From an uncultured Methanosarcinales archaeon (GTDB lineage: Archaea; Nanobdellota; Nanobdellia; Woesearchaeales; UBA12501): a stretch of 64,000 nucleotides of DNA. A program made the position numbers and the translations under genes. This document shows, piece after piece, positions 9,724 through 53,691 of this stretch. The notes beneath the pieces were generated by a model. The model worked only from the letters and a program-made list of their open reading frames with translations, was not told the DNA's origin and ran no database searches. The stretch lies in NCBI GenBank assembly GCA_964343705.1, contig CAYFJX010000005.1, forward strand, positions 66,791 through 130,790, in the 5' to 3' direction. Position 1 is the first letter of the stretch, and the number at the start of each line of letters is the position of its first letter.

Positions 9724-10929
9724 TTACCAAAAATACAATAACACTGGTAACAACAAACAAGCCATTGCTTGAATTCTTCTTACTTTAACAATTGCAGGAA
9801 TCACGCCTATTGCAGTGCTTGTGAAAAGAATGAGCAATCCAATCCATTTAGTAAGAATGATTGTCATAACAATAATAAAAAGGATGATGCTCCATACTAA
9901 TGTTGGATAATGTACTTTACTTATTAGTTTTGAGAAACACCTGCCAAAAAATAGTGCGAGAAATACACTTACTCCTCCAGCAATAAGTGTTGTGGAAAGG
10001 AATACCCCTACTTCTCTAATTCCCACTTCAGAAAGTAACTCTTGGATTGCGATAATGCTACCATTTCTCGCTTTGCCCAAGACATACAAGGTTACCATGC
10101 TGAGTACAAAGTTTGCAGTGCTTATTGAACCCATCAAGACCATAAAACCATGATCTCCTAGTTTTCGTGAGCCAGGAAGTTGCATGCTGATAGTTGCAGC
10201 AGTTGCAGCTCCAAGCCCAGGCATGAGTGCAGTGATGAAGCCTGAGAATTGTCCTGAAAGTAAGGCACGTACAGCAACTCTTTTTCGTAATTGAATTAAG
10301 GGGGATTGTTTTTGTTCTGGAATACAGCTGGTAGTTGTAAGACTTACTAGCAAGGTTGCAACACCAAACAAACCAGATAACAAAGGGAACAGGGAGTGCT
10401 TACTGTTTTGCAGGTTAAGAACTAATAACCCAAGACTACCAGCAAGAAAGAATACAAACACTGCCCAACCACGCTTGTTATCAGACCAGATCACAAAGAA
10501 AATAACAGCAAGCAGTAACCAAAACATACTTGTTGAAAGAATAGGATATGCAAGAGTAACAAGGGGAATCAGCAGTGGAAACAAGAGTACACTCAATAGT
10601 ATTGCACCAAAACTTCCAATAATAGTAAGCTTCACAGCCATTAAACCAAATCCCTTGTGCAAATAACGATGGCCTGGCAGTACACCAAGTGCAGTGGCAC
10701 TGTCAGGAGCACCAAGAAAAATAGAGGGAACAGCATCAAGAAATGTGTGTACTACTGACATGCTAATGATACATACGCAAAGAACAAGTGGTGACGTGAA
10801 CCTTAGCAAGGTGGGTGAAATTGATATAAGCATAACAGCAACTAAGTTGATGTGAATACCTGGTGTGAGGCCAGTGATGCAGCCGCAGGCAATGCCCAGG
10901 CTTACTGCAGTAATGAGTTCAATGAACAT
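9724..10929 (-). CDS. TctA-family (DUF112) integral membrane protein
   Basis: About 12 predicted TM helices. Repeated 'GxxPGxG' segments ('TGLTPGIHI', 'ALMPGLGAA') typical of TctA/DUF112. Confidence 0.65.
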   Translation of the reverse strand: MFIELITAVSLGIACGCITGLTPGIHINLVAVMLISISPTLLRFTSPLVLCVCIISMSVVHTFLDAVPSIFLGAPDSATALGVLPGHRYLHKGFGLMAVKLTIIGSFGAILLSVLLFPLLIPLVTLAYPILSTSMFWLLLAVIFFVIWSDNKRGWAVFVFFLAGSLGLLVLNLQNSKHSLFPLLSGLFGVATLLVSLTTTSCIPEQKQSPLIQLRKRVAVRALLSGQFSGFITALMPGLGAATAATISMQLPGSRKLGDHGFMVLMGSISTANFVLSMVTLYVLGKARNGSIIAIQELLSEVGIREVGVFLSTTLIAGGVSVFLALFFGRCFSKLISKVHYPTLVWSIILFIIVMTIILTKWIGLLILFTSTAIGVIPAIVKVRRIQAMACLLLPVLLYFW

Positions 10930-10944
10930 TTTTACCTCATTTTA

Positions 10945-11154
10945 GGGTGTGTCCCAAGAGTCTTTCTGAGGGGTGGCACTGCCGCAAGGTTTTATCAGGA
11001 AATCTCAAGGGGCGAAGCTCCTTGACGCATCTGAGCTTTGCTCAGATTGCGGCCGAATAATGAGGTGATTTCCGTTAACACTACGAATGAATTTGAGTAG
11101 TTAACACCGCAGTGCCACCCCTCCTGCACAAAAAGCAAGATTTGGGACACACCC
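10945..11154 (+). mobile_element. 210-bp MITE-like element, copy 1 (TIRs GGGTGTGTCCCAA / TTGGGACACACCC, subterminal GGGGTGGCACTGC / GCAGTGCCACCCC)
   Basis: The reverse complement of 53706..53915 matches this copy at 209 of 210 positions. Perfect 13-bp terminal inverted repeats. No ORF inside. Confidence 0.8.
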
Positions 11155-11199
11155 CTCATTTTACTAACATTTATATACTACATAAACTTATGTACCCCT

Positions 11200-11466
11200 A
11201 TGGAACTCAAAGCACACATGCACTATCCCACTTTGAAGACAATCCTTATGGTTGAAGCATTTCTCAAAAAGCATGAGGGGGATCTCCTAAGCAGGAATCA
11301 AATACTTCGGGGCTTGCCTAAAAAAATGGATAGGCAAACACTTAATACTATCCTTACTTATCTTGAAGCATCAGGGAAGATACTTGATGGTTCTAAAGGA
11401 ATACATTGGACATACACTCCTAAAGAGGAGATGGAAAGACTACTAAAAGATGCTCTCATCGTCTAG
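11200..11466 (+). CDS. hypothetical small protein (88 aa)
   Basis: ORF convergent with and overlapping the stop of the RelE-like gene. Possible small DNA-binding protein. Confidence 0.3.
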   Translation: MELKAHMHYPTLKTILMVEAFLKKHEGDLLSRNQILRGLPKKMDRQTLNTILTYLEASGKILDGSKGIHWTYTPKEEMERLLKDALIV

Positions 11467-11840
11467 TTTTTCTTATAACCAAATTTTTTGCTATATTTTT
11501 TATGGTCTAATACATCAAGCACAATATTTACAACTTTTATCTCATCACTCTCAATTACATATATCAGCCTCCAATGTTGGATCAGGTTGCATTTCCACAA
11601 GTTTTTAACTCTGTATTTCTGAGTATATTCTCTTGGGATTTTTCTTTTTGAAATGTGAATTCCTGCATGGGGGTTTGTTTTTAAAAGGGCTAATGTCCTG
11701 TTGATTGAACATAATAATTTCTGGGTATCTGTATTTACTTTACCTTTATCTAATTCTTCTTCTACTAAATTCTGTAGAAAGAAGTATTGTGTCTTTGCAT
11801 CATCTTTTAATGCAACTATTATTTTCTTATTCTCAAACAT
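11463..11840 (-). CDS. RelE/ParE-family toxin-like protein
   Basis: C-terminal 'LWKCNLIQHWRLIYVIESDEIKVVNIVLDVLDHKKY' matches the RelE/ParE core pattern. Confidence 0.5.
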   Translation of the reverse strand: MFENKKIIVALKDDAKTQYFFLQNLVEEELDKGKVNTDTQKLLCSINRTLALLKTNPHAGIHISKRKIPREYTQKYRVKNLWKCNLIQHWRLIYVIESDEIKVVNIVLDVLDHKKYSKKFGYKKN

Positions 11841-12040
11841 GAATAATCACCTATTTATTATCTGTCTTTTTCCTTAATAAGCGCTCCTGAACAAAAACCA
11901 AACTATTTTCGTACAACTTGAAACACTTTCGGAGTACATCAGAAGATTTACAGAAAAATCAGGAAAAATTGAATAGTTTTCGCTCCCTCTGAAACTACTT
12001 AAAAACAAACTTTAAAAATAAAACAGTCTTGTAACAGCAT

Positions 12041-12955
12041 ATGGGCATATTTTCCTTTTTTTCCAAAAAAGAAAAGAGAATAGATGAGCGACTAGCAGAA
12101 GCTGTAGATGGCCACGAATTTTCAACTGAGGTAGCACCCCAAGCAAAAAAAACATGGAAAAAACTAGCTCTCATCTTACCGGGTGGTGGTTCGCGAGGAG
12201 CGCTTGAAGTAGGAGGGATTAAAGCCCTATGGAAACATGGTATTATTCCAGATGTTATTCTAGGAAGTAGTGTTGGTTCTATTAATGGGGCAATTATGGC
12301 CTCAGGTCGCTCACCTGAAGAGCTTGAACAAATTTGGCATAAAATGACAGGTAAACTTGTCTTTCCTACTAATTACAAAATAGTTTGGCAAATGTATCGT
12401 GTACGATCAGTTGCTCTTACATCAAACATTAAACGCATTTTGAAATATTCAGTTAAAGGCGATTATTTTGAAGATTGCAAAATTCCATTCTATGCCATCA
12501 CAACAAGACTTGCTGATGGTGAACCAGTCTGGTTTAGTAAAGGACCAATTAGGGATGCGGTCATGGCAAGCTTGTCAATCCCTCCTTATTTTCCACCGCA
12601 ACTCATTGATAATATTAAGTATGTTGATGGCAGTATCAGTGGAGTCAATGGGATTAAGAAAGCTGTTGAGCTTGGATGTGACAAAATTATTGTTCTTAAT
12701 GCATCCAATACCAGTAAGCGATTTGATTTTTCAGGTATTCTTGACGTAACTTCTCACAGTCTTGATCTTATGTTCCATAAAAACATGTTGCGTGAAATGG
12801 ATTTATGTATTAGCCCGTTTAGCAACACAGAAGTTATAACGGTGCGTGTTCCATATATAGATGTGCAGGTTAATGATTTTACTAAAACCTATGAATTAAT
12901 TGAAAAAGGTGAGAGGGAAACATTACGCGTGCTGAAACAGAAAAAGATTCTCTAA
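12041..12955 (+). CDS. patatin-like phospholipase
   Basis: Oxyanion motif 'GGGSRGA'. Nucleophile elbow 'GSSVGS' (GxSxG). Catalytic Asp in 'VDGSISG'. Confidence 0.82.
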   Translation: MGIFSFFSKKEKRIDERLAEAVDGHEFSTEVAPQAKKTWKKLALILPGGGSRGALEVGGIKALWKHGIIPDVILGSSVGSINGAIMASGRSPEELEQIWHKMTGKLVFPTNYKIVWQMYRVRSVALTSNIKRILKYSVKGDYFEDCKIPFYAITTRLADGEPVWFSKGPIRDAVMASLSIPPYFPPQLIDNIKYVDGSISGVNGIKKAVELGCDKIIVLNASNTSKRFDFSGILDVTSHSLDLMFHKNMLREMDLCISPFSNTEVITVRVPYIDVQVNDFTKTYELIEKGERETLRVLKQKKIL

Positions 12956-13564: not shown

Positions 13565-14182
13565 ATGGGTGTTGAAGACAATCGTTTCAAAAGTCATGTG
13601 GATCCTGCGATTTATGGTATTTTCAGACGTATTTTTCATTTAGGTAAGAAAAAGAGTTTTCCTATTGTCAAGTCAGGTTTTACTTGTTCAGGGCATGTGT
13701 GGGAAGATGGTTTGCCTAAAGAACAAAAAAAAGAATATACCAGCATGGCAACAGGCAAGCTCGAGAAAATACATCCATTGGCGTATACGTACTTGTTGTT
13801 TCGTACTAAAGGTAAGCAGTTTGAGAATGCACTATTTCTTCATCAACGAATTGTTTCAATTAACAAGGACTTGGCCAATCCACATTATGACATTGTAGTC
13901 GAAAGTTTTAACACTAGTGATGACTTTCCTCCTGAAGAAAAAGATATTGACACGTTTGAACAAGGACATGATCACTTGCTGGTACGGTATGAAATGAAAT
14001 TCTTAAAGCCGCTTGGAAAGATTAGTGCTGATGATGCTCGCGAAGCGTTTCGCCATTTTTGGCAACAGTTCAGTGATCTTATCTGGGGTTATGAATCATG
14101 GAAACTGTTTAAGAAACGAGAAGTGATTGATAAGAACTGGTTTAGTTATCGTGGTCTGGGGAAAGATCTGTTGTTTGAGTGA
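13565..14182 (+). CDS. hypothetical protein (start uncertain; ORF opens at 13370 but overlaps carS)
   Basis: Long ORF. The first ATG that does not overlap carS is 13565 ('MGVEDNRF'). Confidence 0.45.
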   Translation: MGVEDNRFKSHVDPAIYGIFRRIFHLGKKKSFPIVKSGFTCSGHVWEDGLPKEQKKEYTSMATGKLEKIHPLAYTYLLFRTKGKQFENALFLHQRIVSINKDLANPHYDIVVESFNTSDDFPPEEKDIDTFEQGHDHLLVRYEMKFLKPLGKISADDAREAFRHFWQQFSDLIWGYESWKLFKKREVIDKNWFSYRGLGKDLLFE

Positions 14183-15135
14183 TTAGAGTGGATTATAAAA
14201 AGAATGAATTACAAGGGGTTCTGAATGAATTTGATATTTTGGATATACTACAGATTAACAAGTTTAAAAAAGGAGTAATTAATACTAGTTTTAAGGTAAC
14301 AACAAAAGACAAAGAGTATGTACTGCGTATATATTCTCGAAAAGGAAAAAAAGAGCTTGAATATGAAGTTGCGCTTCTTAATCACCTTACTGCTGCTGGT
14401 TTACCCACACCACATCTTGTCAAAAACAAAAAAAATACTTTTTTGACTAAAATAAACAAAAAGTATGCATGTTTGTATAAGTTTATTAAAGGTCAGGAAC
14501 CAAGTTTTTTAAACACTAGCCACCTTGTACAAATCGGGGAATTTTTGGCAAGATTCCATACTATTGGAGAAACATTTACGCCAATTGGTAATCGAGATCA
14601 GGCAAATCTTGGTGATATGCAAGAAGAATTTGAGAAATATTCTTCTTCATTTATGAAAACAAGCATAGCTAATAAAGATCAGTATATTAAAACAATAAAA
14701 GAAGAGCTATTTTCACTTTCACTCCCTGATCTTCCTCAAGGACCCCTTCATTTAGACATCAAAGCAGAAAATACATTATTTGAGAATGACGTACTGACAG
14801 GTATTATTGATTTTGATAATGGTTTTATTGGACCATATATTCTTGATATAGGTAAAACAATGATGTGGTTATGCTGTAAAAACGGTATAAATATTGAAAA
14901 ATGTAAAAGCCTGTTGGATGCCTATACTGAGGTAAGAAACTTATCAAACAATGAAAAAAAACATCTTTTTACTGCGCTACGGTTTGCCTTTATTGGACAT
15001 GTTTGGATTGATTTTTATTTGTTGGGTGAAGATAAACTTCCACTTGACTATGTAGAAACAACCATTCTTGGTTTGTACAATACTTATTTTAAAATTTTAA
15101 AGCAAGAAGATGCATTTAATGCGTTGCTATATTAA
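14179..15135 (+). CDS. phosphotransferase of the APH/choline-kinase/homoserine-kinase-II family
   Basis: Catalytic 'HLDIKAENTLF' (HxDxxxxN) and 'IIDFDN' (DFD metal-binding). Lys-rich N-lobe. Confidence 0.65.
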   Translation: MIRVDYKKNELQGVLNEFDILDILQINKFKKGVINTSFKVTTKDKEYVLRIYSRKGKKELEYEVALLNHLTAAGLPTPHLVKNKKNTFLTKINKKYACLYKFIKGQEPSFLNTSHLVQIGEFLARFHTIGETFTPIGNRDQANLGDMQEEFEKYSSSFMKTSIANKDQYIKTIKEELFSLSLPDLPQGPLHLDIKAENTLFENDVLTGIIDFDNGFIGPYILDIGKTMMWLCCKNGINIEKCKSLLDAYTEVRNLSNNEKKHLFTALRFAFIGHVWIDFYLLGEDKLPLDYVETTILGLYNTYFKILKQEDAFNALLY

Positions 15136-16666: not shown

Positions 16667-17245
16667 ATGGCAGAATTAAAACTTGTAATAAATGATCCCA
16701 AAACAGGGAAGGCAGTACAGAAAGAACTTAAGGATGATGCTGTGCAGCCATTCATGGGCCTTAAAATTGGAGACAAGGTCAATGGAGAACTTCTTGACTT
16801 AACTGGTTATGAATTTGAAATTACTGGGGGTAGTGACTTTGCTGGATTCCCAATGCGGAAAGACGTGCCAGGTACTGCTCGTAAACGAATTCTCGCAATT
16901 TCTGGTGTAGGATTAAACAACAAGAAAAAATATCGTAAGAAAAAGAAGAAAGGTTTGCGTACCATGAAAGGTATGCGACAAAGAAAAACTGTTGCAGGAA
17001 ACACAGTCTTTGACAAAACTGCACAACTTAATCTGAAGGTTATCAAAGCTGGAAAAGCAGACTTGTTTGCAGCTCCAGCTCCTGAAGGTGAAGTAGCTCC
17101 TGCTGAAGGCGAAGCTCAATCTGAACAAAGTTCAGATGAGCATTTGAGCTCTGCTCAAATTGCTCCAAAAGAAGAAGCAAAGCAAGCAGAAGCACCAAAA
17201 GAAGCTCCTAAGGAAGAAGCAAAGCCTGAAGAGAAAAAGGAATAA
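16667..17245 (+). CDS. rps6e: 30S ribosomal protein S6e with Ala/Glu/Lys-rich C-terminal extension
   Basis: N-terminal 'LKLVINDPKTGKAVQ...GYEFEITGGSDFAGFPMRKDV' is canonical S6e. TATA-like 'cctttatatag' about 85 nt upstream. Confidence 0.88.
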   Translation: MAELKLVINDPKTGKAVQKELKDDAVQPFMGLKIGDKVNGELLDLTGYEFEITGGSDFAGFPMRKDVPGTARKRILAISGVGLNNKKKYRKKKKKGLRTMKGMRQRKTVAGNTVFDKTAQLNLKVIKAGKADLFAAPAPEGEVAPAEGEAQSEQSSDEHLSSAQIAPKEEAKQAEAPKEAPKEEAKPEEKKE

Positions 17246-17250
17246 CTTTC

Positions 17251-18031
17251 TTATCTTGTTTTTCTTTCTATTATTCTAAACTGCTTTAGGTAATAGTCTC
17301 TTTTTTTCTTTCTTTCAGCACCGCTCTTATGGCGTCCTGTTGCAATCCTAAAATAGTTTGCGCCTGATTCAAAGAAAGAACTTGGCCTACAATAGTTTAT
17401 GCCAGTTCTTCTACTCCTGAAATATCCTCCCTTACACAGTATGGTGTGGGATGTTGTCACGTTTACATGCACATGGGGTTCCTCGCCAGATTCTTTTGCA
17501 TTTCCTGTTTGTCCAACTCTACCAACAATAGTGTCCAAGCCTACATATTGTCCAGGGCGAACAAGCGCTTTGCTCAGGTGTGCATACACAAACTGTAAAC
17601 CACTAGGTGCCTGTATTGTCACAACCTTGCCTCTTTTTGGAAATTCATGATCACGCCCAGCATACACTACTCTGCCTGCAGCAATTGGATAGAGTGGAGT
17701 TCCATTAGGTGCTACAATGTCAACTGCAGGGTGAGGATTAATGCCTCTTTTTGCATTCCAAAATCGTCCACGTCGACCAGCACCCCAATCACCCCATGTT
17801 TTAATACGTTCTTTGGTTGCTTTTTCTCCAATTCGTAACGGGTCTTGGTATTTAGAATATTTCTTAAGGAGTTGCGCATCTGTTAATGGTTTACATCTTT
17901 TCTTTTTCTTCTTTTTTATGTGGTGTGCCTCTGCTTGAGAATATGAAACAGTGTTGTTGTGTAACTCTGTTGGTGCAAGCGTAAGTAATGAAGTCAGGAC
18001 TACTGCAGCGAATACTCTCTTTGCTTTTTTA
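17251..18031 (-). CDS. secreted M23-family (LytM-like) zinc metallopeptidase
   Basis: M23 motifs 'HPAVDIVAP' (HxxxD) and 'PHVHVNV' (HxH). Signal-peptide-like 'KKAKRVFAAVVLTSLLTLAPT'. My translation continues upstream of the Met-defined ORF (17251..17667) to about 18031, with no in-frame ATG/GTG/TTG. Confidence 0.65.
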
Positions 18032-18040
18032 CATATTGTT

Positions 18041-18994
18041 TCAAGCGATATCTTGCATCACCCATGTTCCTATATGATCTAAATCTCCAAAAACTAATCT
18101 TCCCTTTGTTGTCTTTGGCTCAATTTGTACCAATAACATTTTTGACATTGCGATTCGAGGGTCATCATTCCATTCAGCATGGTGGCTAATTGGTCCAATA
18201 CCATATTCAGCTTCTGCTTCACCAGCTCTGTGTAAATCATATAATGCCATGAGTTTGTCAATGGCAGCTTCTCCTTGCGAGGTAAGTTGTTCATGATTGG
18301 CACATTGTTCTCTGTCAGCATATTCTGCCACAACATACTTTTTGAATAAGGGTCTGTTAGTAAGGTCTGAGGTGATGACCACTTTTGCATGCATTAATGG
18401 TTTAGGGGTTATAAGTTCCACCAATCGACCTTTACGATCTTGTCTCACATCAAAGTAATGATGTGGAGGAACTATATCCCCATATCCTATTTTTTCTAAG
18501 AGCGCAGGCATGTTCATAGTGAACGGCATGTAGCCTTTGCGCAAAGGAACAACATAGTGTCCTTGAAACTCTTGTTTTTCTTTGTCTTCTGGAAGCACTA
18601 TTTTAGCAACAGCACCTTTTCCTAATTGTAATACAAGTTGCATACTTCCCTTGCCAATAACTGCAGGTGATTCTTTGCTTATAAGCCTGGTTTCTCTTGC
18701 TCGGTGTTGAATCGCAGCAAGTGCCTCCTCATCTGCTAAATCAGGGTGAGTAATGCTTCTCATTGAAGTATTTACATATGCATCAAGAACAGGACTAGCA
18801 CGTCGTGTTTCTGACTCTATGAGTTTGATAAACCTTTTCTTGGCTTTATCTAGGTTAAAGGTTTGTTGTCCTACACTAGACAAGCCTACAAGATTCCTGA
18901 GTCGGTCGGTTAGTTTCATTTTAGTCTGCAAAGGTGTATAGTTGTTCAAGCTTCTCCCTTGCTTGCTGTATTTCCTTTTTTTTTGTATCATCAC
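18041..18994 (-). CDS. atypical protein-kinase-like protein (probable start at 18919, MKLTDRL)
   Basis: G-loop-like 'IGKGSMQLV' followed by 'AVAKIV' (VAIK-like Lys). 'FGDLDH' DFG-like. Catalytic loop not canonical. Confidence 0.55.
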   Translation of the reverse strand: MMIQKKRKYSKQGRSLNNYTPLQTKMKLTDRLRNLVGLSSVGQQTFNLDKAKKRFIKLIESETRRASPVLDAYVNTSMRSITHPDLADEEALAAIQHRARETRLISKESPAVIGKGSMQLVLQLGKGAVAKIVLPEDKEKQEFQGHYVVPLRKGYMPFTMNMPALLEKIGYGDIVPPHHYFDVRQDRKGRLVELITPKPLMHAKVVITSDLTNRPLFKKYVVAEYADREQCANHEQLTSQGEAAIDKLMALYDLHRAGEAEAEYGIGPISHHAEWNDDPRIAMSKMLLVQIEPKTTKGRLVFGDLDHIGTWVMQDIA

Positions 18995-21185
18995 CCAGTC
19001 TCATTTGCCGCAAAAGACGGGCCCTGAAAATAATTGCACCATCAGCATGCTTCATACCATGTTGGTGGAGTGTATCCATAACAAGCTGTTGCTGACTAAT
19101 ATTATGTTGAGGTACATCAAGCAAGAGACCATGTGCTCCGTTGTAATTATTAGTGTTAGCATAGATGATAGCCAATCTTTCATACGCTGCTTCGTGTTGA
19201 TCGTTGCCTGGTTCATTCTTATTGCGCAGCCGTTGTGTTAGAGATGTTGTGTACTCATCTAGCATCTCCTGCGCGCCAAATGCCCGGACAGCCTTGAAAT
19301 AGCTTTGTACTTCTGCGAGGTCTGCTTCATGTAATCTATCCAAGCATTGTTGAAGTTGATATACTGCGTAGGTGTCTAACTCATCGACGGTATCCTTGTG
19401 CAGTTTTAGAGCATCCCTAATTGCAGTGGCACTATCCCCTGGTTTGCCTTCAAACAAACCACCCCAAGAATACGCAACAGTTCTATTTCTTAGTACTACA
19501 GCCTTGTCCCACTCGCCCTGCATGAGCAGGCCAATCATGGCACTATTGTAGATAGCAGGGTCAAAGTCATGTTCACGAACAATTTTTGCGCAGTCATACA
19601 CTGCTTCAGTGTGTCCTTGTTTTGTTTGTTCAATAACCCAATCATGGATAATTGGATTTGCTATATGGCTGCTTAGTATATTTTTTTGTCTTTGCATGAT
19701 GATTTTTAATCCTTGCTTACTAAAATGTTTATAGTGATGAGAAAGCTCCAGCTTACTCCCCTTTTGGTATTTTCTTATAAAACGTGCTATTTGTTGAAGG
19801 CTATGATACTTTGCGTCTTTATGTCTTAGTTGGATGAAACGCGTGCCAAGATAAGCAACAACAGCACCTGCATAAGCAATAGATGGCTGGCCCATTAGTA
19901 GACCTCCTATGAGAGTAGCGGCTGCTGGAATAAGTCCTGGCCAATTACGTGTTCTTAATTTCAAAGCACTGCTCTGTGCAAAAGAAAGACTCTTGTAACG
20001 CTCAGGCCAATCTTTGACAATGGGAGGAAGTCTATCATGTATTTGTTTATTCCAGAAATCAAAATCATTCTCAGGAACTAAATACCGTTCCTGTTGTAGG
20101 GGAACCTTGCTTTTTGTCTCGCCATCAGCAAGCAAAGCCTTTTGTGTTTCAGACCCTGGAAGTTGTTCGCTTGTACCTTGTAGGAGTTTAGTGGTTAAAC
20201 CAACCATTTCAACTGCAAAAGTTCTCATTGCTTCTTCTGAAGGTGCTACCTCATAGATTCCGGTTGTAGGGTTGTAAAAGCCAAGATTACCACCACTTTG
20301 AATAAAAACTTGTTGTATGTTATCTACTGTTTGTGGTCTGTCATGTTGTTCTTCTTGCAAGCATGCTTCAAGTGTTTTCTTTAATGGCTCTGATATGTTT
20401 GGTGCTCGTCGAACATATTTTATTGGATCATAATCATACTGTCCGGGGATATGAAGTGGTGGTTCTATATGTGTTGCGATTGCTTTTGTTGCCAGGGCAA
20501 GGATGTACCAGTCTGTTGCTGTAGTTGTAGGGATAGTGTGAGTGTCATCATCTCTGTTCATATTTTTTCGCTGCTCTGGTGCAAGGTAGTTTGGTTTACC
20601 AATGATTGTTTCACTTCCTGTGCCATGCTGTTTAAGTCGAGCAATGCCAAAGTCTGTGAGCACAACACGGGTGAAGTCAAAGCGATCATACTGTTCAGTA
20701 ACTTCCAACATGATGTTGTGAGGTGTTGGGTCACGATGGTATATTCCTTGCTTGTGTGCAGCTTGGAGTCCGTGAATTGCAGGGAAAAAAAATCGCTCTA
20801 GTTGCTCTGCGGAGAAGTGACTGCCTTCTTTCATAGCTTGCTGAGCAGATATCCCTCTGATAAGTTCCATGAGAATGTGCATTCCAGGACCATAACCAAC
20901 ATCTTCTTTGAAGCTGTCTACATAGCCAACAACATTAGGGTGGGTTATTGCTTTAAGTGCTTGTGCTTCCCGTTCTATCTCTTGCACTTCAGTTGTTTCC
21001 CAATTTGTAATTTTTGAAAAGTCAACAAGTTTGAGTGCGTACTCTTTTCCTGTTTTTCTATCCATAACTTTGTACACAACACCCATGCCTCCACGTCCAA
21101 GTGGCTTGCCAACTCGTTCAAACTGTTCCCATAGTCCTAGTTCTGGATTTCGGATCGTCATTCTTCTATCCTCTGAATAGTGCAC
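18921..21185 (-). CDS. membrane-spanning eukaryotic-like Ser/Thr protein kinase with large C-terminal repeat-rich domain
   Basis: 'GRGGMGVVYKV', 'YALKL', 'YHRDPTPHNIML' (HRD..N), 'DFGIA', 'APEQ'. Hydrophobic stretch 'GLIPAAATLIGGLLMGQPSIAYAGAVVAYLG', then about 330 aa. A likely ATGA start overlap at 21161. Confidence 0.8.
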   Translation of the reverse strand: MHYSEDRRMTIRNPELGLWEQFERVGKPLGRGGMGVVYKVMDRKTGKEYALKLVDFSKITNWETTEVQEIEREAQALKAITHPNVVGYVDSFKEDVGYGPGMHILMELIRGISAQQAMKEGSHFSAEQLERFFFPAIHGLQAAHKQGIYHRDPTPHNIMLEVTEQYDRFDFTRVVLTDFGIARLKQHGTGSETIIGKPNYLAPEQRKNMNRDDDTHTIPTTTATDWYILALATKAIATHIEPPLHIPGQYDYDPIKYVRRAPNISEPLKKTLEACLQEEQHDRPQTVDNIQQVFIQSGGNLGFYNPTTGIYEVAPSEEAMRTFAVEMVGLTTKLLQGTSEQLPGSETQKALLADGETKSKVPLQQERYLVPENDFDFWNKQIHDRLPPIVKDWPERYKSLSFAQSSALKLRTRNWPGLIPAAATLIGGLLMGQPSIAYAGAVVAYLGTRFIQLRHKDAKYHSLQQIARFIRKYQKGSKLELSHHYKHFSKQGLKIIMQRQKNILSSHIANPIIHDWVIEQTKQGHTEAVYDCAKIVREHDFDPAIYNSAMIGLLMQGEWDKAVVLRNRTVAYSWGGLFEGKPGDSATAIRDALKLHKDTVDELDTYAVYQLQQCLDRLHEADLAEVQSYFKAVRAFGAQEMLDEYTTSLTQRLRNKNEPGNDQHEAAYERLAIIYANTNNYNGAHGLLLDVPQHNISQQQLVMDTLHQHGMKHADGAIIFRARLLRQMRLGDDTKKKEIQQAREKLEQLYTFAD

Positions 21186-24100
21186 AAAGTTTGTGTTTCA
21201 TCATTTATGTGAATTCTATAACCAAAGTTTTCTAGGCGCTTTGTTAATGCATCATATTTTGCTTTATTTGGTAACCAGAAACTTGGAGCTGGCCAGTTCT
21301 CACCAGCAAGCAGCCACCATTCAATAGCGTGTTCTGGACTGTTATGAGGTGGCCTCATGAATTGTTGTTGATATTCATTGCATTGTGTTCGTAATGGTCC
21401 TGGAATTTCCAGTTCAAATACTTTGCATGCGTCGACAAATGAGCGAAGTTGGTGAAGCTCCACATCTTCTCCATTATATGTTTCAAGTGCACTTTCTAAA
21501 CACTCGCGAGCAATCCTGTCAATTCTTGTAGTGTTTACACCCTTATGGACTAAGTAATTCTCTTCTGTGTCTTTTGAAGCAATACCTTCATTTGACCGAC
21601 CAGCATAAAGAGGGGGTACTCCATGTTCTACAACACTTAATCGTACATCAAGTGCGAAGTTCCATGCTCCTGACAGTAGTAGCCCATACATAACTGTTTC
21701 ACTTGTTTCAGGCACAACCATGGCTAGGCCAACTGCAGCAATTTGATCTTCATAGACTCCTTTTACAATTTGAGTGGCTGCATAATGCCGTGCAAAAATA
21801 TTTCTGAGTAATCGTCCATGATTATTTTCAATATCATCTAGTATTGGTATCATCTGACTCATGGCATCTAACTTATCTGCGTTTGCTGTATATTGTCTAA
21901 TGCCACGCATACCATTAGGATGACTAACAAAATCACGTATTTTTTGCTCTCGTAGATTTCCTGTTTTTACTTTTCCATGGTTCCAATCATATCTATCAAG
22001 CCATGCTTCCCATGCTTCGCCTTTTGGTGGGGTTAAATATTGTTCTTGTGGAACTTCATTATTGTCGTTGTTTTCTCGTGGCATCAAATCAGGGAACATT
22101 GCTCCTATAAGTCCTATAAGGTGAAACCTTGGTTGTGTTCCTTCCATGTCTTCTCCCATTGCATTATTTTGTAGAAGGGGTTTTTCCTCATCTGTTAGTT
22201 GGTAGATTCTTTCAGTTGGTATGCGCATTTGTTCTGCCCACTCAAGTGGATCTGCTGAAATTCCATGTGCCCATTGTAAGCCAGTTTCTGGTAGCTGGCC
22301 ATACCCACGTGCAATGTTTCTGCCAGTTGCATATATGCGTCCACTATTTCTTCCGACAAGTAATACATTTCTTTGTTCTGGTTCTGAACTTTCATAGTAC
22401 AACATAGCGAGTCTTTCGGTTGCTATGCTATTTTCTACATCAACGGCAGTTGGTGGTGTAATTCCTCGTCGCCGTTCTGCTGCTTCAAGTGATGCCAATC
22501 CTGCAGGTGAGATTGGTGATCTTTGACGTCTTCTGCCTGTTGCTGATGCAGGAATAAAATCAGAAAACTCTCGCTCAATTATTTCTAGGAGTAGTTGTCT
22601 TCTTGGAGATCCAGGTGCTCGTCCTGCACTGTTAGTCCTTTCTAAAAGAGATATCTCATCTCCTTGTAAGCTGTATAATTGTTCATCAGGTATGTTATTA
22701 TCCCTTGCCCAACGTTCAACATTTCGAATACCTGAATAAGAGTACTGCAATCCAAATTCTTCAATTGTTCCTAATTGTGGTCTGATGCCTCTGTCTACTT
22801 CCTCAATCGCATCACCACTTGGGCTGAGGATGAGTATGTTTCTTTCCATAGGTCTTGGTCCAAGAAAGTACACAGCAGCAACATCAGTTCGTGGTTCTGG
22901 TTGTGTTGTTGGAGTTCTTCCTGCTAGTACATCATCAAGTGCACCACCAATATTGTCAGCGTCAATACTTGTACGTTGTTCTCTTCCTGGTTGCTCCAAA
23001 CCTTGTTGACTAAACATATCATTAATCATTCCTGCAACTTCTGTATGGCTTCTTGTAGGATTTAGCAAATCATCATTTAGCCACCCTCGTGGTGTCACAT
23101 GATAGTTATCATCAGTTACTCCCCATCGTTGTTCAATGTTTGTTCTCTCCCGTGCATGAAGAAGCAGGGTGTCATATGATCCAATTGCTGGGTAGCCGCA
23201 GAAGTTGATGTTTCCAATGTACTCCAGTCCTATTTCTTCAATTACTTCTTGTGTTCCTACAATAAGTATTCGTTCAAGGAGCATGTCTGCAAGGATACCA
23301 TGGATTCTTAGATCTCTTTGTGGTGTTGGTGTTGTTGCAACAGCAGGTGTGCTTTGTTCTGTTATAGGCAGTTGTGGTTGAATAAATCTGACAAGCGCAG
23401 CAATATCAGATGGTTCTGATAATCGCGTTCCCAACATTCCAGGTGGTGCAGCAACTCGTTTATAGTTATCTGTATCTCTAAACATATCTCGTGTGCCATT
23501 GGCAACAACTAATCCTTTATAGGGGCCAATATCACGATTGGTAGTTATAATCCCTGCTGGCCCATAGCGTCTCCTCATATTTCTAATTCCTTCTTCATTG
23601 CTAACAATCATGTTGTAACTGGATGTTGAATCTAATAACATGAGGTACTCAGGAGCTTGCGAGTTTACATCTCGTGCAGTTGGCCAATTATCACCAACTA
23701 AATATCTAAATGCGTCAACACCCATGTGTTCGCCTTCTTGCACAACACCATCAACACGAAGCATTGCATCAAGGTCTGCAGGGTCAAGTCTATGCCATCC
23801 TCGTCGTGTGGCAGCAGCTTGTGCACATAACTTAGCAATTAAGGCAGGATTCTCAGGTACTTTGAATTGGTACGCTTCATACACTGCTTGCCAAGTACTT
23901 TGCAAAAGATCAAGAAATGGTCGAGCATGTGTTGTTCGTAAATTCTGTCTAAACTGTGCTTGTGCAACTTCATCAAGAGTTGGGTTTGCAGCAAGTCCAA
24001 GCACCATACTGTCATGCGCGTGAATATTGCTGTGACCCATACGTGTAATCATTAAATCTGCAATTCTTAATTGTGCATAGTGCCATTGCCATTCTTCTAC

Positions 24101-24397
24101 TTGTCGAGGTAATACTGATTTGTTCAAGCCTGTAGCAACTTGTGTTGCTCCTGCACGCATATCTTGGGGTATAGGAGTGTATGATCGTAAATAGTCTTCA
24201 ATAATTGTTTCTACTACTTGGGCATCTCGCTCACGAACACTACCCATTATGTCGCGCACTGTTGTGCTTGGCCCATGTACTTGTAGTCGTAGTGTTCGGA
24301 TAGTGTCATCTACTTTCTTTGCAAGCCAGTCAACATCATTAAGAAATGATGTAGGATTCAAGCCTTTTGCCCTTTTGAGGAAGTCAGTAATGCTCAT
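21158..24397 (-). CDS. giant hypothetical protein (1079 aa), paralogous to the adjacent 866-aa protein
   Basis: Uninterrupted ORF. No signal peptide or TM. Shares block 'WEAWLDRYDWNHGKVKTGN' and a downstream roughly 200-aa region with the 866-aa neighbour. Arg-rich SP-motif linker. Confidence 0.8.
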   Translation of the reverse strand: MSITDFLKRAKGLNPTSFLNDVDWLAKKVDDTIRTLRLQVHGPSTTVRDIMGSVRERDAQVVETIIEDYLRSYTPIPQDMRAGATQVATGLNKSVLPRQVEEWQWHYAQLRIADLMITRMGHSNIHAHDSMVLGLAANPTLDEVAQAQFRQNLRTTHARPFLDLLQSTWQAVYEAYQFKVPENPALIAKLCAQAAATRRGWHRLDPADLDAMLRVDGVVQEGEHMGVDAFRYLVGDNWPTARDVNSQAPEYLMLLDSTSSYNMIVSNEEGIRNMRRRYGPAGIITTNRDIGPYKGLVVANGTRDMFRDTDNYKRVAAPPGMLGTRLSEPSDIAALVRFIQPQLPITEQSTPAVATTPTPQRDLRIHGILADMLLERILIVGTQEVIEEIGLEYIGNINFCGYPAIGSYDTLLLHARERTNIEQRWGVTDDNYHVTPRGWLNDDLLNPTRSHTEVAGMINDMFSQQGLEQPGREQRTSIDADNIGGALDDVLAGRTPTTQPEPRTDVAAVYFLGPRPMERNILILSPSGDAIEEVDRGIRPQLGTIEEFGLQYSYSGIRNVERWARDNNIPDEQLYSLQGDEISLLERTNSAGRAPGSPRRQLLLEIIEREFSDFIPASATGRRRQRSPISPAGLASLEAAERRRGITPPTAVDVENSIATERLAMLYYESSEPEQRNVLLVGRNSGRIYATGRNIARGYGQLPETGLQWAHGISADPLEWAEQMRIPTERIYQLTDEEKPLLQNNAMGEDMEGTQPRFHLIGLIGAMFPDLMPRENNDNNEVPQEQYLTPPKGEAWEAWLDRYDWNHGKVKTGNLREQKIRDFVSHPNGMRGIRQYTANADKLDAMSQMIPILDDIENNHGRLLRNIFARHYAATQIVKGVYEDQIAAVGLAMVVPETSETVMYGLLLSGAWNFALDVRLSVVEHGVPPLYAGRSNEGIASKDTEENYLVHKGVNTTRIDRIARECLESALETYNGEDVELHQLRSFVDACKVFELEIPGPLRTQCNEYQQQFMRPPHNSPEHAIEWWLLAGENWPAPSFWLPNKAKYDALTKRLENFGYRIHINDETQTLCTIQRIEE

Positions 24398-26994
24398 TGT
24401 TCTGACCTCTCAGCAATTCGTTCTTCAATAAATGCTAGCATGGCTTCTTTGTCAGGTAGTGGGTCCCTGTGGTTTCCTACTAATCCTTCTGGCCCAATAA
24501 TGCGATCGTATTTTCGTTCCTGGCCAAGAGTGTGTGCCATCCCTTCTGATACAATAAGTCCATGGTAATCGCCTACTTCACACTGAGTACTCTGTAGTCT
24601 GTTTCTCTGGTAATGTGCTGATAACTCATCAATGAGTGTTTCATTACCAACAATAAGCGCATGGTTTCCTTCTTTCGGATCTACTATGATGTCATACACA
24701 ACTGCTTTTTGCGGTTTTTCAATATATACTAGGCCACCTCCCATGCAAACTTGTAGGCCCATTGGCTTGAGTCTTTCTCTTAATGATCGTGCTTCGGAAA
24801 GCGGGGGGTTTGATGTAATACTATCTGAACTAATTGATACAGTGTTTCCAATAATTAAATTCTCAGCTTCTCCAGAAAGAATTGTAAACTCTGCTGCTCG
24901 TTCATACTGGTTGTTTTCTCTAGCAATACCGTACCTGATTACTGCTTCAGCAGGTTGGTAGCCAAATGTGCGGCAGGTGTCAACATATTTTTGTAAGTCT
25001 TCAAGAGATGCTTCAGCTCTCCTTTCAAACATGTCTGCAAGCACTTCTTGAGCAAGTTTATCAAGCCTTGCAGTCTTATTTGGTCCAAGTGTTTGTATGC
25101 AATAATTATCTTCGTTGTCTTTAGCTTCAATTGCTTTAGGGATAGTACTTACACTGTCGCGGTAACTTGTTTCACTGTTTTGAAGACGAAGACAGCCAGC
25201 TTTGTCTAAGTGCCTTGCACGAATTAATCCTTCAAGTACTGGTTCAAGCATTTCTGGAACATCTGCTGCAAGCTCCATTGCACGTTGATGGTCTCCATCA
25301 ACAATAAGTTTTGCAGCGTAGTGGTTGGCAAGGAATTTGGTTCGTCTAGTGCCTAATTCATATCTTGGGAAAACATCTTTGACAGATTCAGGATTTGTTA
25401 TTCGTAATCGCTCAACCATGTTAGGCAGCTGATCAGAGAATGCTTCTACATTATGATCACTGAAGTTTCCAGTTTTAACTTTTCCTCGGTTCCAGTCGTA
25501 CTTGTCTCGCCATGCTTCCCATTGTCCAATCCCCCTTAGTCGTTCAACTATATTTCGTGCTCTTTTGTAACTAGGTAGGTTTTGATGGTGATTTAATCCA
25601 GTAAGGGTTTGCAGTTCATCGCTGCTTAACACATGTATTTTTTCAGAGGGAGTGCGAATTGCTTCAAGAAATTGTGAAGAAATTCTATCAAAACTAAGTA
25701 GGTAATATTGATGGTGTCTTTGTAGATTGAAATTTCTGACTTCGAAGCTTTGAGCGTAGCTGTGAGTTCTGGACATTTTTCCCTCTATTTCGGGTTTGCA
25801 GTAAAATGTCAGGTCTCCATCTGTTGCATTTTGTGTCACGAAAAGAACCAAGTCATCAAAGCTTGGTCCAAAGTGTTCTTGTATTTTTTGTTTAAGTATC
25901 TCATGTTGTTCTTCTGAAAAACCAGATAGTGTGTCCAAACTTATATTAACACCAAGATTGTCTGCAGTGAACACACGAGGTAGATCAAGCTCTTCTTGTA
26001 CTTGTCGGATCTGGCCAGGGTCTTCTAAAAAAAATACTTGCCGCTTAGCAACTTGTCCCCAGCTTATGTGTCCATTGGGTGGTCCTGCCTGAAGATTATA
26101 GCCAATAAGGTAGGCTTGATCCTCTGCCTCGTTGACAATTAGTCCTTCATACAATAGTTCTAGTGTTGCTGTTTCTACAGGTGCAGCATCAAAACCAGTA
26201 ATAAGGTTTTCAGCAACAGTTCTCAACTGGCCTGGTGTCATTGTTGTACTTCGTGCGCTAAGTTCTATTTCTAATCTCCTAGCTTCAACATCATTTCTAG
26301 CAAAATCTTCTACAGTTTGTGCAATCAATTGAGGGGTGACTTGTAGGCTAGTGGGTTCAGTCCACCCACCTAATGGTTCTTGTGCTTGGATCCTATCAAG
26401 TTCTTCATCTTCACGAACACGCATAACATGGTAAATATCTTCTGCTGTTCCATCACGGAATGCTGAAAAGTTGTGACGTTGTCTCCATCCAATTCGTTGT
26501 AATGCTTCTTCACTTTTGTCACCTTGCCCATTTGCCATAAGCAAAAGATTGATTCCTTCTGCAAGTTCTGCATCTACACCTACAAAAAAGTCGTTTGCAA
26601 ACTTTGCTGCTGCAGCTTTTCTCTCATAATACACTTCCCATCTTTGGCGTTCGTGTTTGCGGCCTGCTACATTGTTTAGAATTGCAAGTTCATGGGGGTC
26701 ACTGGTGTTCCATGCATTATCATTGCGACGCGGTGCGTCTTCAGCAAGGTCTTGATTAAACACTACTTGGTGTGCCCGCATTGCATCAAGATATCCTCCA
26801 ACTGTTTCTTTAACAAGTCGCACGTCCCCATTGCCCTTAAATAAACCCATAAAGTCAAAGTTTGGTCTATCATGTTGGATCAAGCGAAGTGCTGCAATGA
26901 CTTCTTCTGCCAGACTGGTTGTATAGTCAACTGCGTCCAAGAACGAGAACTTGGTGACATTCTCAAGTGTGAGAGGAAGTTCTGGCTTACTCAT
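24394..26994 (-). CDS. giant hypothetical protein (866 aa), paralogue of the 1079-aa protein, with extra C-terminal domain
   Basis: Uninterrupted ORF. Block 'WEAWRDKYDWNRGKVKTGN'. C-terminal about 170 aa with 'VCMGGGLVYI...LIVGNETLIDEL'. ATGA overlap with downstream gene. Confidence 0.8.
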   Translation of the reverse strand: MSKPELPLTLENVTKFSFLDAVDYTTSLAEEVIAALRLIQHDRPNFDFMGLFKGNGDVRLVKETVGGYLDAMRAHQVVFNQDLAEDAPRRNDNAWNTSDPHELAILNNVAGRKHERQRWEVYYERKAAAAKFANDFFVGVDAELAEGINLLLMANGQGDKSEEALQRIGWRQRHNFSAFRDGTAEDIYHVMRVREDEELDRIQAQEPLGGWTEPTSLQVTPQLIAQTVEDFARNDVEARRLEIELSARSTTMTPGQLRTVAENLITGFDAAPVETATLELLYEGLIVNEAEDQAYLIGYNLQAGPPNGHISWGQVAKRQVFFLEDPGQIRQVQEELDLPRVFTADNLGVNISLDTLSGFSEEQHEILKQKIQEHFGPSFDDLVLFVTQNATDGDLTFYCKPEIEGKMSRTHSYAQSFEVRNFNLQRHHQYYLLSFDRISSQFLEAIRTPSEKIHVLSSDELQTLTGLNHHQNLPSYKRARNIVERLRGIGQWEAWRDKYDWNRGKVKTGNFSDHNVEAFSDQLPNMVERLRITNPESVKDVFPRYELGTRRTKFLANHYAAKLIVDGDHQRAMELAADVPEMLEPVLEGLIRARHLDKAGCLRLQNSETSYRDSVSTIPKAIEAKDNEDNYCIQTLGPNKTARLDKLAQEVLADMFERRAEASLEDLQKYVDTCRTFGYQPAEAVIRYGIARENNQYERAAEFTILSGEAENLIIGNTVSISSDSITSNPPLSEARSLRERLKPMGLQVCMGGGLVYIEKPQKAVVYDIIVDPKEGNHALIVGNETLIDELSAHYQRNRLQSTQCEVGDYHGLIVSEGMAHTLGQERKYDRIIGPEGLVGNHRDPLPDKEAMLAFIEERIAERSEQ

Positions 26995-27172
26995 TCTTAC
27001 CTACCTCATCAAGCATTGTGCGAACATCAACTGTGCGCTTACGCTGGTAGTCTAATCGGTTCTTACATCGTGGGCAAGCCTTAGGGCTAGGAACACGGGG
27101 CTTCCAGTTATACTTACAGAATGTACAGAGTGCTTCCTTCTCAGCCATGCTCGTAGTAGTAAAACAGATCAT
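26987..27172 (-). CDS. small zinc-ribbon protein (C-x2-C...C-x2-C)
   Basis: 'CTFCKYNWKPRVPSPKACPRC'. Overlaps the start of the 866-aa gene by 8 nt. Likely start is the internal 'MAEKEAL'. Confidence 0.45.
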   Translation of the reverse strand: MICFTTTSMAEKEALCTFCKYNWKPRVPSPKACPRCKNRLDYQRKRTVDVRTMLDEVGKNE

Positions 27173-27303: not shown

Positions 27304-27447
27304 CTAAGCTTCTGCTTCAGGTACCTTGAGTCTATCAACGCAAGGGTTACAATAGATTTCAGACGGTTTAGCATTAATCATCTTATCCTTACACCGTCTA
27401 CAATAAGAAATTTTCTTAAATCCACTAATTCTTTGAAATGCAGCCAT
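27304..27447 (-). CDS. small zinc-ribbon protein (47 aa; below ORF-track cutoff)
   Basis: My translation of the minus strand gives 'MAAFQRISGFKKISYCRRCKDKMINAKPSEIYCNPCVDRLKVPEAEA'. It is the first gene of the minus-strand operon. Confidence 0.4.
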   Translation of the reverse strand: MAAFQRISGFKKISYCRRCKDKMINAKPSEIYCNPCVDRLKVPEAEA

Positions 27448-29503: not shown

Positions 29504-30193
29504 TCACCCCTTTATGTGGGGTGGTTTATCAAATTCTACTTCACCTTCTAACAAGATGCCTTTTTTCAATTCACAGGGCCGCCAGGTGTCAATAACTAAT
29601 TCTGCATCAAGCCAGTCAGACAACTCTTTTGGATTACCTATTGTAGCACTTAATCCAAGAATCTGTACTTTGGGTAACAACTTCTTAAGCAAGGTCATAA
29701 GAATTTCAAGTGTTGGCCCTCGTCGTGGATCATTAAGCATGTGGATCTCATCAACAACTACAAGCCCAATGTCTTTTACCCATGGTGCACCATGACGAAT
29801 CACGCTGTCGAGCTTTTCACTTGTTGCGATAATAAGATCGTACTTTGCCAAGTGAGGATCACCACTATCTAAATCACCAATAGACAATGCAATGCTAAAC
29901 AATTCACCATAGCGTTGTTTGAATTGCTTGCGTTTTTCACTTGCCAATGCCTTTAAGGGTGCCAAGTAAATTGCCTTGCCTCTTTTCTGTGTGAGGATTG
30001 TGTTGATAATGGCGAGCTCGGCAACAAATGTTTTTCCAGAACCAGTTGGTGTACACACAATCATACTCTTGCCTTCAAACAATCCTTGGTCTATTGCCTT
30101 GCCTTGTGCAGGCCTGAGTTTATCAAGTCCTGCTTCTTCGTATCGTTCATAGATTACTTCTGGAATTTTACCTTTAAGATCTTTGAGTTGCAT
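29504..30193 (-). pseudogene. Ski2/Hel308-like superfamily-2 helicase, N-terminal RecA1 domain only (truncated gene remnant)
   Basis: Walker A 'CTPTGSGKTFVA', DEIH box 'VVVDEIHML', motif III 'GLSATI'. The ORF ends after about 229 aa, with no RecA2 or C-terminal domains. Confidence 0.55.
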
Positions 30194-53598: not shown

Positions 53599-53691
53599 GC
53601 CCTTGTAGCATAGTGGTAGTGCACTGCCTTGGTATGGTCAGTAATGACAACAAAGAGGCAGAGGTCCCGAGTTCAAATCTCGGCAAGGGCT
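53599..53691 (+). tRNA. tRNA-Thr (anticodon GGT) with 21-nt intron at canonical 37/38
   Basis: Acceptor GCCCTTG/CAAGGGC, D stem GCAT/GTGC, anticodon stem CTGCC/GGCAG, loop TTGGTA[intron]A, T arm CCGAG-TTCAAAT-CTCGG. Confidence 0.75.

Follow-up and report, generated by a model that had tools for sequence, protein, structure and literature searches.

A helical module common to a Hanks-type kinase and two large paralogous proteins in a variable island of a Woesearchaeota chromosome

Hanks-type serine/threonine (Ser/Thr) kinases that carry a C-terminal TPR-like helical-repeat domain exist, mycobacterial PknG being one example. Here we describe a locus that invites this comparison in a member of the DPANN archaea. 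These obligate symbionts encode a great many large proteins that are private to a lineage and have no assigned role. The locus lies in a stretch of 64,000 nucleotides (nt) of contig CAYFJX010000005.1 (assembly GCA_964343705.1), called here the window, and it is made up of two genes for giant proteins, g866 and g1079, followed by a kinase gene, k754. As in the PknG-type kinases, a Pkinase domain is paired in k754, and in a second kinase found in database searches, P0011, with a solenoid-looking C-terminal alpha-helical domain. Unlike in the PknG-type kinases, this helical domain falls below the thresholds of TPR and PPR models, it follows a putative membrane hairpin, and two large proteins that are not kinases, encoded by the genes directly upstream, carry it as well. 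A literature search found neither a description of these proteins nor an arrangement like this one, with a domain shared between kinase and non-kinase.

The second comparison to be made is with the polymorphic toxin systems (Zhang et al., 2012; PMC3482391), as the giants belong to a family, here called the N-family, that has, like these systems, a constant N-terminus and wholesale C-terminal replacement between close relatives. There are also differences. Secretion or trafficking domains, recognizable toxin domains and immunity genes are all missing from the N-family loci, that of the giants included; the hosts belong to the DPANN archaea; and the two giants share one C-terminal module instead of differing in it. 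As to the genes downstream in the N-family loci, these are the kinase in the window, a Fic gene on the opposite strand in the related genome GCA_053533855.1 (L001 below), and ribosomal or other genes elsewhere.

The giants, the kinase and their common domains

The features of the three proteins are as follows (positions are those of the window; aa, amino acids; ORF, open reading frame).

24394..26994, minus strand: g866, giant paralogue, 866 aa (ORF)
26401..26964, minus strand: g866 aa 11-198, N-family domain, divergent and C-terminally truncated (profile built without g866)
24715..25521, minus strand: g866 aa 492-760, shared module with WEAW block, helical core (~550-680), terminal helix and beta-hairpin (BLASTP, E=1e-20)
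25453..25521, minus strand: g866 aa 492-514, WEAW..GKVKTGN block (BLASTP, codon comparison)
24415..24708, minus strand: g866 aa 763-860, X domain, C-terminal (BLASTP, E=6e-8)
21158..24397, minus strand: g1079, giant paralogue, 1079 aa (ORF)
23687..24397, minus strand: g1079 aa 1-237, N-family domain (52% identical to P0002 1-238)
23369..23659, minus strand: g1079 aa 247-343, X domain, directly after the N-domain (BLASTP)
22622..22885, minus strand: g1079 aa 505-592, internal repeat R1 (Smith-Waterman against R2)
22154..22414, minus strand: g1079 aa 662-748, internal repeat R2 (Smith-Waterman against R1)
21161..22012, minus strand: g1079 aa 796-1079, shared module (BLASTP, MAFFT, profiles)
21944..22012, minus strand: g1079 aa 796-818, WEAW..GKVKTGN block (BLASTP, codon comparison)
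18921..21185, minus strand: k754, Hanks-type Ser/Thr kinase, 754 aa as ORF (Pkinase, E=4.9e-35)
20307..21113, minus strand: k754 aa 25-293, kinase catalytic domain (Pkinase, E=4.9e-35)
19830..19937, minus strand: k754 aa 417-452, Gly/Ala-rich hydrophobic stretch, putative membrane hairpin, with Lys/Arg-rich flanks on both sides (maximal Kyte-Doolittle value over 19 residues, KD19, 1.44)
19269..19691, minus strand: k754 aa 499-639, copy of the module's helical core, without WEAW block (BLASTP and profiles)

An earlier note on this DNA had read the giants as paralogues joined by a conserved block and a region of roughly 200 aa downstream of it, and this is borne out. BLASTP places g1079 796-1033 against g866 492-709 in one collinear alignment (246 columns, 31% identity, E=1e-20), so the similarity is not the low-complexity patch that the note had named as the alternative, and MAFFT prolongs the alignment to the C-terminus of g1079 and to residue ~760 of g866, taking in a terminal helix and beta-hairpin (LTKRLENFGYRIHI versus LRERLKPMGLQVCM). 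The block itself, W-E-A-W-x-D-x-Y-D-W-N-x-G-K-V-K-T-G-N, stands at the start of the alignment, within ~12 nt of where the note had put it, with 16 of its 19 residues identical between the giants. As different codons are used at six of the 13 identical non-Trp residues, the block must have been kept by selection on the protein rather than by recent gene conversion; judged from the codons, it is conserved at the protein level and under purifying selection. A further shared segment, the X domain (~100 residues; g1079 247-343 against g866 763-860, E=6e-8), is permuted, following the N-domain in g1079 and being C-terminal in g866. An internal repeat of ~88 residues is found in g1079 (R1 against R2, Smith-Waterman score 111, z=16.5 over 300 shuffles), the tail of R2 weakly resembling g866 ~440-470 (z ~4). 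A relationship between the X domain and the R repeats was considered and found no support (hhalign E=0.46 over 19 columns). With the N-domain discussed below, the giants are, by these alignments, paralogues over most of their length, with three shared domains of which one has a different position; they arose within a single Woesearchaeota (DPANN) lineage, where a gene was duplicated in tandem and its domains were rearranged.

The note had treated the module as a feature of the two giants. It is present in both, but its helical core is also found in the adjacent kinase. k754 scores 121.6 bits against PF00069 (cut-off 31.7), as a Hanks-type Ser/Thr kinase does, and its motifs are readable (the glycine loop GRGGMGVV, YALK, HRD..N, DFG and APE), with the Lys of HRDLK replaced (HRDPTPHN); the kinase is apparently active. 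Matches to models in PADLOC (PD-T4-6, mad6, MkoA) are only by the generic kinase domain. In BLASTP the C-terminal half of k754 matches the two giants at E=4e-4 and 8e-4, with both alignments in the same register. A profile built from the giants alone gives k754 a score of 24 bits (E=3e-6) and P0011 one of 33.9 bits (E=3e-9), where none of 3000 decoys exceeds 6.7 bits; conversely, a profile built from the kinases alone gives g866 (579-680) 40 bits and g1079 32 bits, with decoys reaching 9.7 bits at most. Going by these scores, the helical core of the k754 C-terminus is homologous to the module of the giants. The WEAW block is absent from both kinases in the module alignments.

P0011 is a 962-aa kinase, only ~25% identical to k754, with a stronger hydrophobic region (KD19 1.94) and two tandem copies of the core, suggesting that the core pairs with itself. 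Its contig (L002; ENA ERZ930068 k127_55788, locus at 9516-12889) and the window contig derive from one ENA sample, and the tetranucleotide usage of L002 correlates with that of the window backbone at r=0.98 (13 other loci, <=0.90), indicating that P0011 probably comes from the same genome and is thus probably its second kinase. The gene is preceded by an overlapping M23 peptidase gene, with Fic and HD genes nearby; as an M23 gene also flanks the island in the window, the adjacency of kinase and M23 recurs.

The giants and the kinase are encoded in a run of five genes, together with a 61-aa zinc-ribbon ORF at its head and an uncharacterized gene, p317, at its end. The zinc-ribbon gene overlaps the start of g866 by 8 nt, the ATGA at 24394-24397 is common to the g866 stop and the g1079 start, and the ATGA at 21158-21161 is common to the g1079 stop and the kinase ATG; this likely start, at 21161, gives a kinase of 746 aa (P0004, the same protein, was called at 746 aa), and the start of p317 is probably Met26, at nt 18919. 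Such stop/start overlaps imply that the genes are co-transcribed and translationally coupled, and from the coordinates the five almost certainly form one operon.

AlphaFold2 (AF2), used on single chains only, modeled g866 430-866 (6-row alignment) at a mean pLDDT (predicted local distance difference test) of 53, with the helical core (g866 ~549-679) as stacked helices at pLDDT 70-86. We put forward, tentatively and short of conviction, that the giants and the kinase work as one kinase-centered complex through this shared helical module. The core would act as a cytoplasmic TPR/PPR-like solenoid for protein-protein association, tethering the two soluble giants (neither they nor P0002 possess a hydrophobic segment; KD19 of the giants, <=1.38) to a kinase anchored in the membrane, for which they would serve as scaffold partners, as substrates or in both ways. 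The Lys/Arg residues on both flanks of the hydrophobic stretch of k754 would leave its kinase domain and its module both in the cytoplasm. The WEAW..GKVKTGN block, found in the giants only, might be a giant-specific contact or docking element. The TPR domain of kinesin light chain binds Trp-acidic (W-D/E) cargo motifs, and by analogy only, a Trp/acidic peptide (QWEAWRDKYDWN) adjoins a TPR-like solenoid in the giants. TPR entries of kinesin light chain do occur in the non-significant list of structural matches (Foldseek, E>=1.7), and the block may just as well be no more than a piece of the fold.

Several observations weigh against such a complex. The maximal KD19 of k754 falls under the strict transmembrane (TM) cut-off, making the membrane anchoring uncertain. 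The model of the module is poor outside the core (mean pLDDT 53), with the WEAW block below 50 and the X domain below 50-55. The module is known from one genome, two at most. In L001 an N-family protein is encoded at the same site without kinase or module, demonstrating that the N-family is independent of the kinase. Finally, the sharing of domains between neighbor genes could reflect local recombination alone.

The N-family and its exchanged C-termini

An exhaustive HMMER search of 1.84 billion representatives, run with a composite profile, brought up the N-family, whose members (P0002, P0005-P0010 and P0012, in ~9 sequence clusters) share residues 1 to ~230 of g1079. While g1079 1-237 scores 279 bits against the family profile, a profile built without g866 matches g866 11-198 at 46 bits (E=5e-13; best of 2000 shuffles of g866, 9 bits), and ten columns are invariant in all ten N-family sequences, g866 included (F18, V22, L36, R37, Y69, L70, W103, Y107, Y173 and E182 in g1079 numbering). 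The claim that the N-terminal halves of the giants are unrelated has thus been overturned, and of the picture of one C-terminal module fused to different N-terminal modules only the shared module remains: the N-domain is common to both giants, the X domain is shared but permuted, and the N-terminal part is constant in a wider family. AF2 predicts the N-domain (10-row alignment) as all-alpha (pLDDT 79, predicted TM-score 0.77); nothing in PDB (best E=2) or in BFVD (best E=1) matches this fold. A relationship between the N-domain and the module is unsupported (hhalign probability 0.4%, E=0.15); an N-domain segment, ENPALIAKLCAQAAATRRGWHRL (g1079 aa 182-205), does resemble the PPR-like hairpin of the module, PAIYNSAMIGLLMQGEWDKAV, and hhalign pairs the two without significance.

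Beyond the N-domain the similarity ends abruptly. One example is g1079 and P0002, 52% identical over 1-238 and unrelated beyond. Another example is P0009 and P0012, 70% identical over 1-240, with long runs of 100% identity, and likewise unrelated beyond; these two are encoded in different genomic neighborhoods (L087 8001-9434 and L090 4541-5983), in a pattern of C-terminal replacement. Overall, at least five unrelated types of C-terminal regions are found among ~9 representatives. A motif, [ND]A[DE][ND][IL]G.A.D.AERG.T, recurs ahead of the C-terminal regions of several of the proteins (g1079 aa 469-500, nt ~22898-22993; P0005 263-292; P0002 ~680-700), a degenerate form standing ahead of both R repeats of g1079. 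The match preceding R1, 'NADDIG..AAERGET', reaches E=0.014 only between g1079 and P0005, an extended R profile finds nothing above decoys, and the motif is a hint only.

Outside the window the N-family genes are single genes, some of them located among housekeeping genes (ribosomal, RNA polymerase, tRNA-synthetase) and others near toxin-antitoxin, Fic, RelA/SpoT, reverse-transcriptase, NTP-transferase or SLT genes. From the latter neighborhoods, from the sharp cliff in identity after the N-domain, from the number of C-terminal types, and from the variability and atypical composition of the island that holds the giants (below), a case can be made for a polymorphic conflict or effector family, in which a constant N-domain would serve handling or targeting and exchangeable C-termini would be the active parts, the giants being an expanded version and the kinase an unrelated neighbor that exchanged a domain. 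We consider this unlikely, if by no means negligible, as the proteins lack a signal peptide, a TM segment and any known trafficking domain, none of the C-terminal regions has a match among the toxin or enzyme families of Pfam, PADLOC and PHROGs, no small conserved immunity-like gene lies downstream, several members sit among the ribosomal, RNA polymerase and tRNA-synthetase genes, and the fold of the N-domain has no counterpart in PDB or BFVD.

Fold and rarity of the module

The author of the earlier note did not recognize the module, and we found no match to it in Pfam, PADLOC, PHROGs or by structure. Foldseek of the module model against PDB gives nothing significant (best E=0.16), the list being mostly TPR-like solenoids. 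When a five-copy module profile is compared with PDB sequences, designer PPR proteins come up at E=6e-20 (75 bits); this score is the sum of one 35-residue segment ('..llGLllkGaldkAldvR..') over ten near-identical repeats, at 6-8 bits and individual E of 12-55 each, and, being an artefact of repeat summation, it gives no grounds for membership in the PPR family. No Pfam PPR model matches the module pieces at E<=10 or the whole proteins at E<=1, no natural PPR protein is matched, and no tandem array is present. Neither does the TPR family claim the module: the giants have no TPR match, and the kinase tail has single ones, all far under the cut-off (TPR_10, E=0.073; TPR_2, E=0.17; TPR_19, E=0.96). 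What the module has in common with PPR/TPR solenoids is one 35-residue helix-turn-helix segment that aligns with the PPR consensus and predicted stacked helices; what it lacks is the tandem array, a passing score with a family model and a significant structural match. It is best described as an unclassified helical domain with at least one PPR/TPR-like hairpin.

This bears on a further explanation, in which the module would be a PPR/TPR-type solenoid binding a ligand or RNA, so that the kinase and the giants bind the same molecule independently, and not each other. In its favor, Hanks kinases often carry a C-terminal sensor domain of helical repeats, the operon is headed by zinc-ribbon genes, and the 35-residue segment has its PPR resemblance. 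We nevertheless find this explanation distinctly unlikely, since the 75-bit score dissolves into ten weak designer repeats, neither a natural PPR protein nor a Pfam PPR/TPR model (E<=10) is matched by the giants, and each module has one recognizable hairpin instead of an array.

As to the distribution of these proteins, a word-indexed search of 5.8 billion proteins returned, for g1079, itself and P0002 only, and for g866, only itself. In the HMMER search of the 1.84 billion representatives, a profile search of the kind that the note had proposed, the module part of the composite profile matches the three window proteins and P0011 only. Pattern scans confirmed by tblastn yielded no relative in the JGI metagenome contigs, for the module or for the P0011 tail, and none in IMG/VR. 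A scan of GTDB genomes with the N-family alignment was likewise empty, and 80 Woesearchaeota loci, retrieved by way of the neighboring NYN gene, carry none of the four domains. The giants have no family match in Pfam or PHROGs, none in PADLOC-DB (0 families at E<=1), and none to the known anti-phage defense models of the latter. That the similarity is real but functionally empty is highly improbable. In this reading the giants would be lineage-specific ORFs in decay or in fast drift, the island would be junk-like, and local duplications would have left the shared pieces behind; their near-orphan state (a module restricted to the window proteins and P0011, nothing in GTDB genomes, JGI metagenome contigs or IMG/VR) and atypical composition speak for it. 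Against it, uninterrupted ORFs of 866 and 1079 codons are unexpected from non-coding DNA of 40% G+C, the WEAW block has kept its residues while its codons changed synonymously, several genomes conserve the N-domain, and the ATGA coupling is intact. On present evidence the giants represent a real, lineage-specific, uncharacterized family, unusual for the domain that it shares with the adjacent kinase, neither an artefact nor a known system, and perhaps no more than one of many private DPANN gene families.

The variable island and the meaning of the locus

The window is part of an archaeal chromosome, in agreement with the archaeal source that the earlier note had guessed. Among its genes are those for deoxyhypusine synthase, AMP phosphorylase, enolase and ribosomal protein S6e, and an NYN-domain neighbor of the island is 66-73% identical to proteins from Woesearchaeota metagenome-assembled genomes. 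L001 is syntenic with the window on one side of the island (enolase, His-phosphatase, DEAD, NYN and thioredoxin genes) and on the other (M23, S6e). The genes that surround the giants and the kinase are as follows.

27304..27447, minus strand: small zinc-ribbon ORF, 47 aa, upstream of the operon (CxxC..CxxC motifs; Zn_ribbon Pfam match, E=4.5e-4, sub-threshold)
26987..27172, minus strand: small zinc-ribbon ORF, 61 aa, operon gene 1 (CxxC..CxxC motifs; Pfam scan)
18041..18994, minus strand: p317, uncharacterized, last gene of the operon (homologue at the syntenic L001 site)
17251..17667, minus strand: short M23 peptidase gene, flank of the island (Peptidase_M23, E=8.6e-12; orthologue in L001)

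Of these, L001 keeps both zinc-ribbon ORFs and a homologue of p317 (32%), along with the N-family gene P0002, whose 52% identity to g1079 extends over the N-domain only; UPF0489 genes, toxin-antitoxin pairs and a Fic gene are found there in place of g866, the rest of g1079 and the kinase. The 61-aa zinc-ribbon ORF has a counterpart in L001 (57% identity) that lies immediately ahead of the UPF0489 and P0002 genes, and the 47-aa ORF is 64% identical to an ORF at the syntenic site. The pair heads the variable island in both genomes (8941-9243 and 7298-7537 in L001), and both ORFs were left uncalled as genes in L001 and in a second copy of the window locus, L089. p317 is 32% identical over 282 aa to a 267-aa L001 protein at the syntenic site (13597-14400; E=4e-30), the two sharing a 'GS.Q.VL.LG.GA.AK' pattern and a C-terminal 'GDLDH' motif, and has no match in Pfam or PDB. 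Its reading as an atypical kinase, from a 'GKGS..AVAKI' pattern, was dropped, with no Pfam or PDB support and with the conserved 'GDLDH' at the extreme C-terminus. The window M23 peptidase (138 aa) corresponds to the C-terminal third of a 398-aa L001 protein, being a truncated or minimal form. Hydrolases of the peptidoglycan type are notable in archaea; another is the SLT protein encoded next to P0005 in the locus L003.

Compositionally, 18-27 kb (18001-27000) is the only tetranucleotide outlier of the window (r=0.86 against the rest); every 9-kb segment clear of the island gives 0.96-0.98, and the overlapping ones 0.91 and 0.93. The G+C content of the island (0.416) is slightly above that of the rest. 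This odd composition may reflect foreign origin or an unusual amino-acid composition. A viral or mobile origin was considered and is unsupported, with no PHROG match, no IMG/VR relative, no BFVD structural match, and no tRNA or integrase adjoining the island. By composition and synteny, the operon is located in an atypical, variable island of a Woesearchaeota chromosome.

Four other features of the window were recorded. One is an ARAGORN tRNA of 93 nt (53599-53691) with an undetermined four-base anticodon (ggta), which may be an intron-containing archaeal tRNA. Another is a 396-aa ORF (8533-9723) that combines a ribulose-phosphate 3-epimerase-like N-half with a ribose-5-phosphate isomerase B C-half. 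A third is a stand-alone N-terminal DEAD/ResIII helicase lobe of 229 aa (29504-30193; L001 5050-5739), 70% conserved and with no adjacent Helicase_C. The last is an S6e-like ORF (16667-17245) with a long C-terminal tail rich in Ala, Glu, Lys and Pro.

The location in a variable island and the exchangeable C-terminal regions together point to a fast-evolving role, such as interaction with a host, a virus or the envelope, and not to housekeeping. A bolder version of the kinase-centered complex, very unlikely as a whole, would see here an undescribed DPANN assembly in which a membrane kinase and two giants are joined through a private solenoid, with the WEAW block as docking peptide, the giants coming from a DPANN-wide polymorphic family with swappable C-terminal cargo for symbiont-host or virus conflict.

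In conclusion, the locus provides a testable handle on the orphan proteins of DPANN, with three adjacent genes tied by one private domain, and it reveals a small family that combines a constant N-terminal domain with C-terminal regions that even close relatives have swapped. Should the link between the kinase and the giants be false, this would be ordinary tandem paralogy in a variable island. If it is true, then a reduced archaeon would have made a new module for signaling or conflict out of domains that were duplicated and shuffled inside a single operon.

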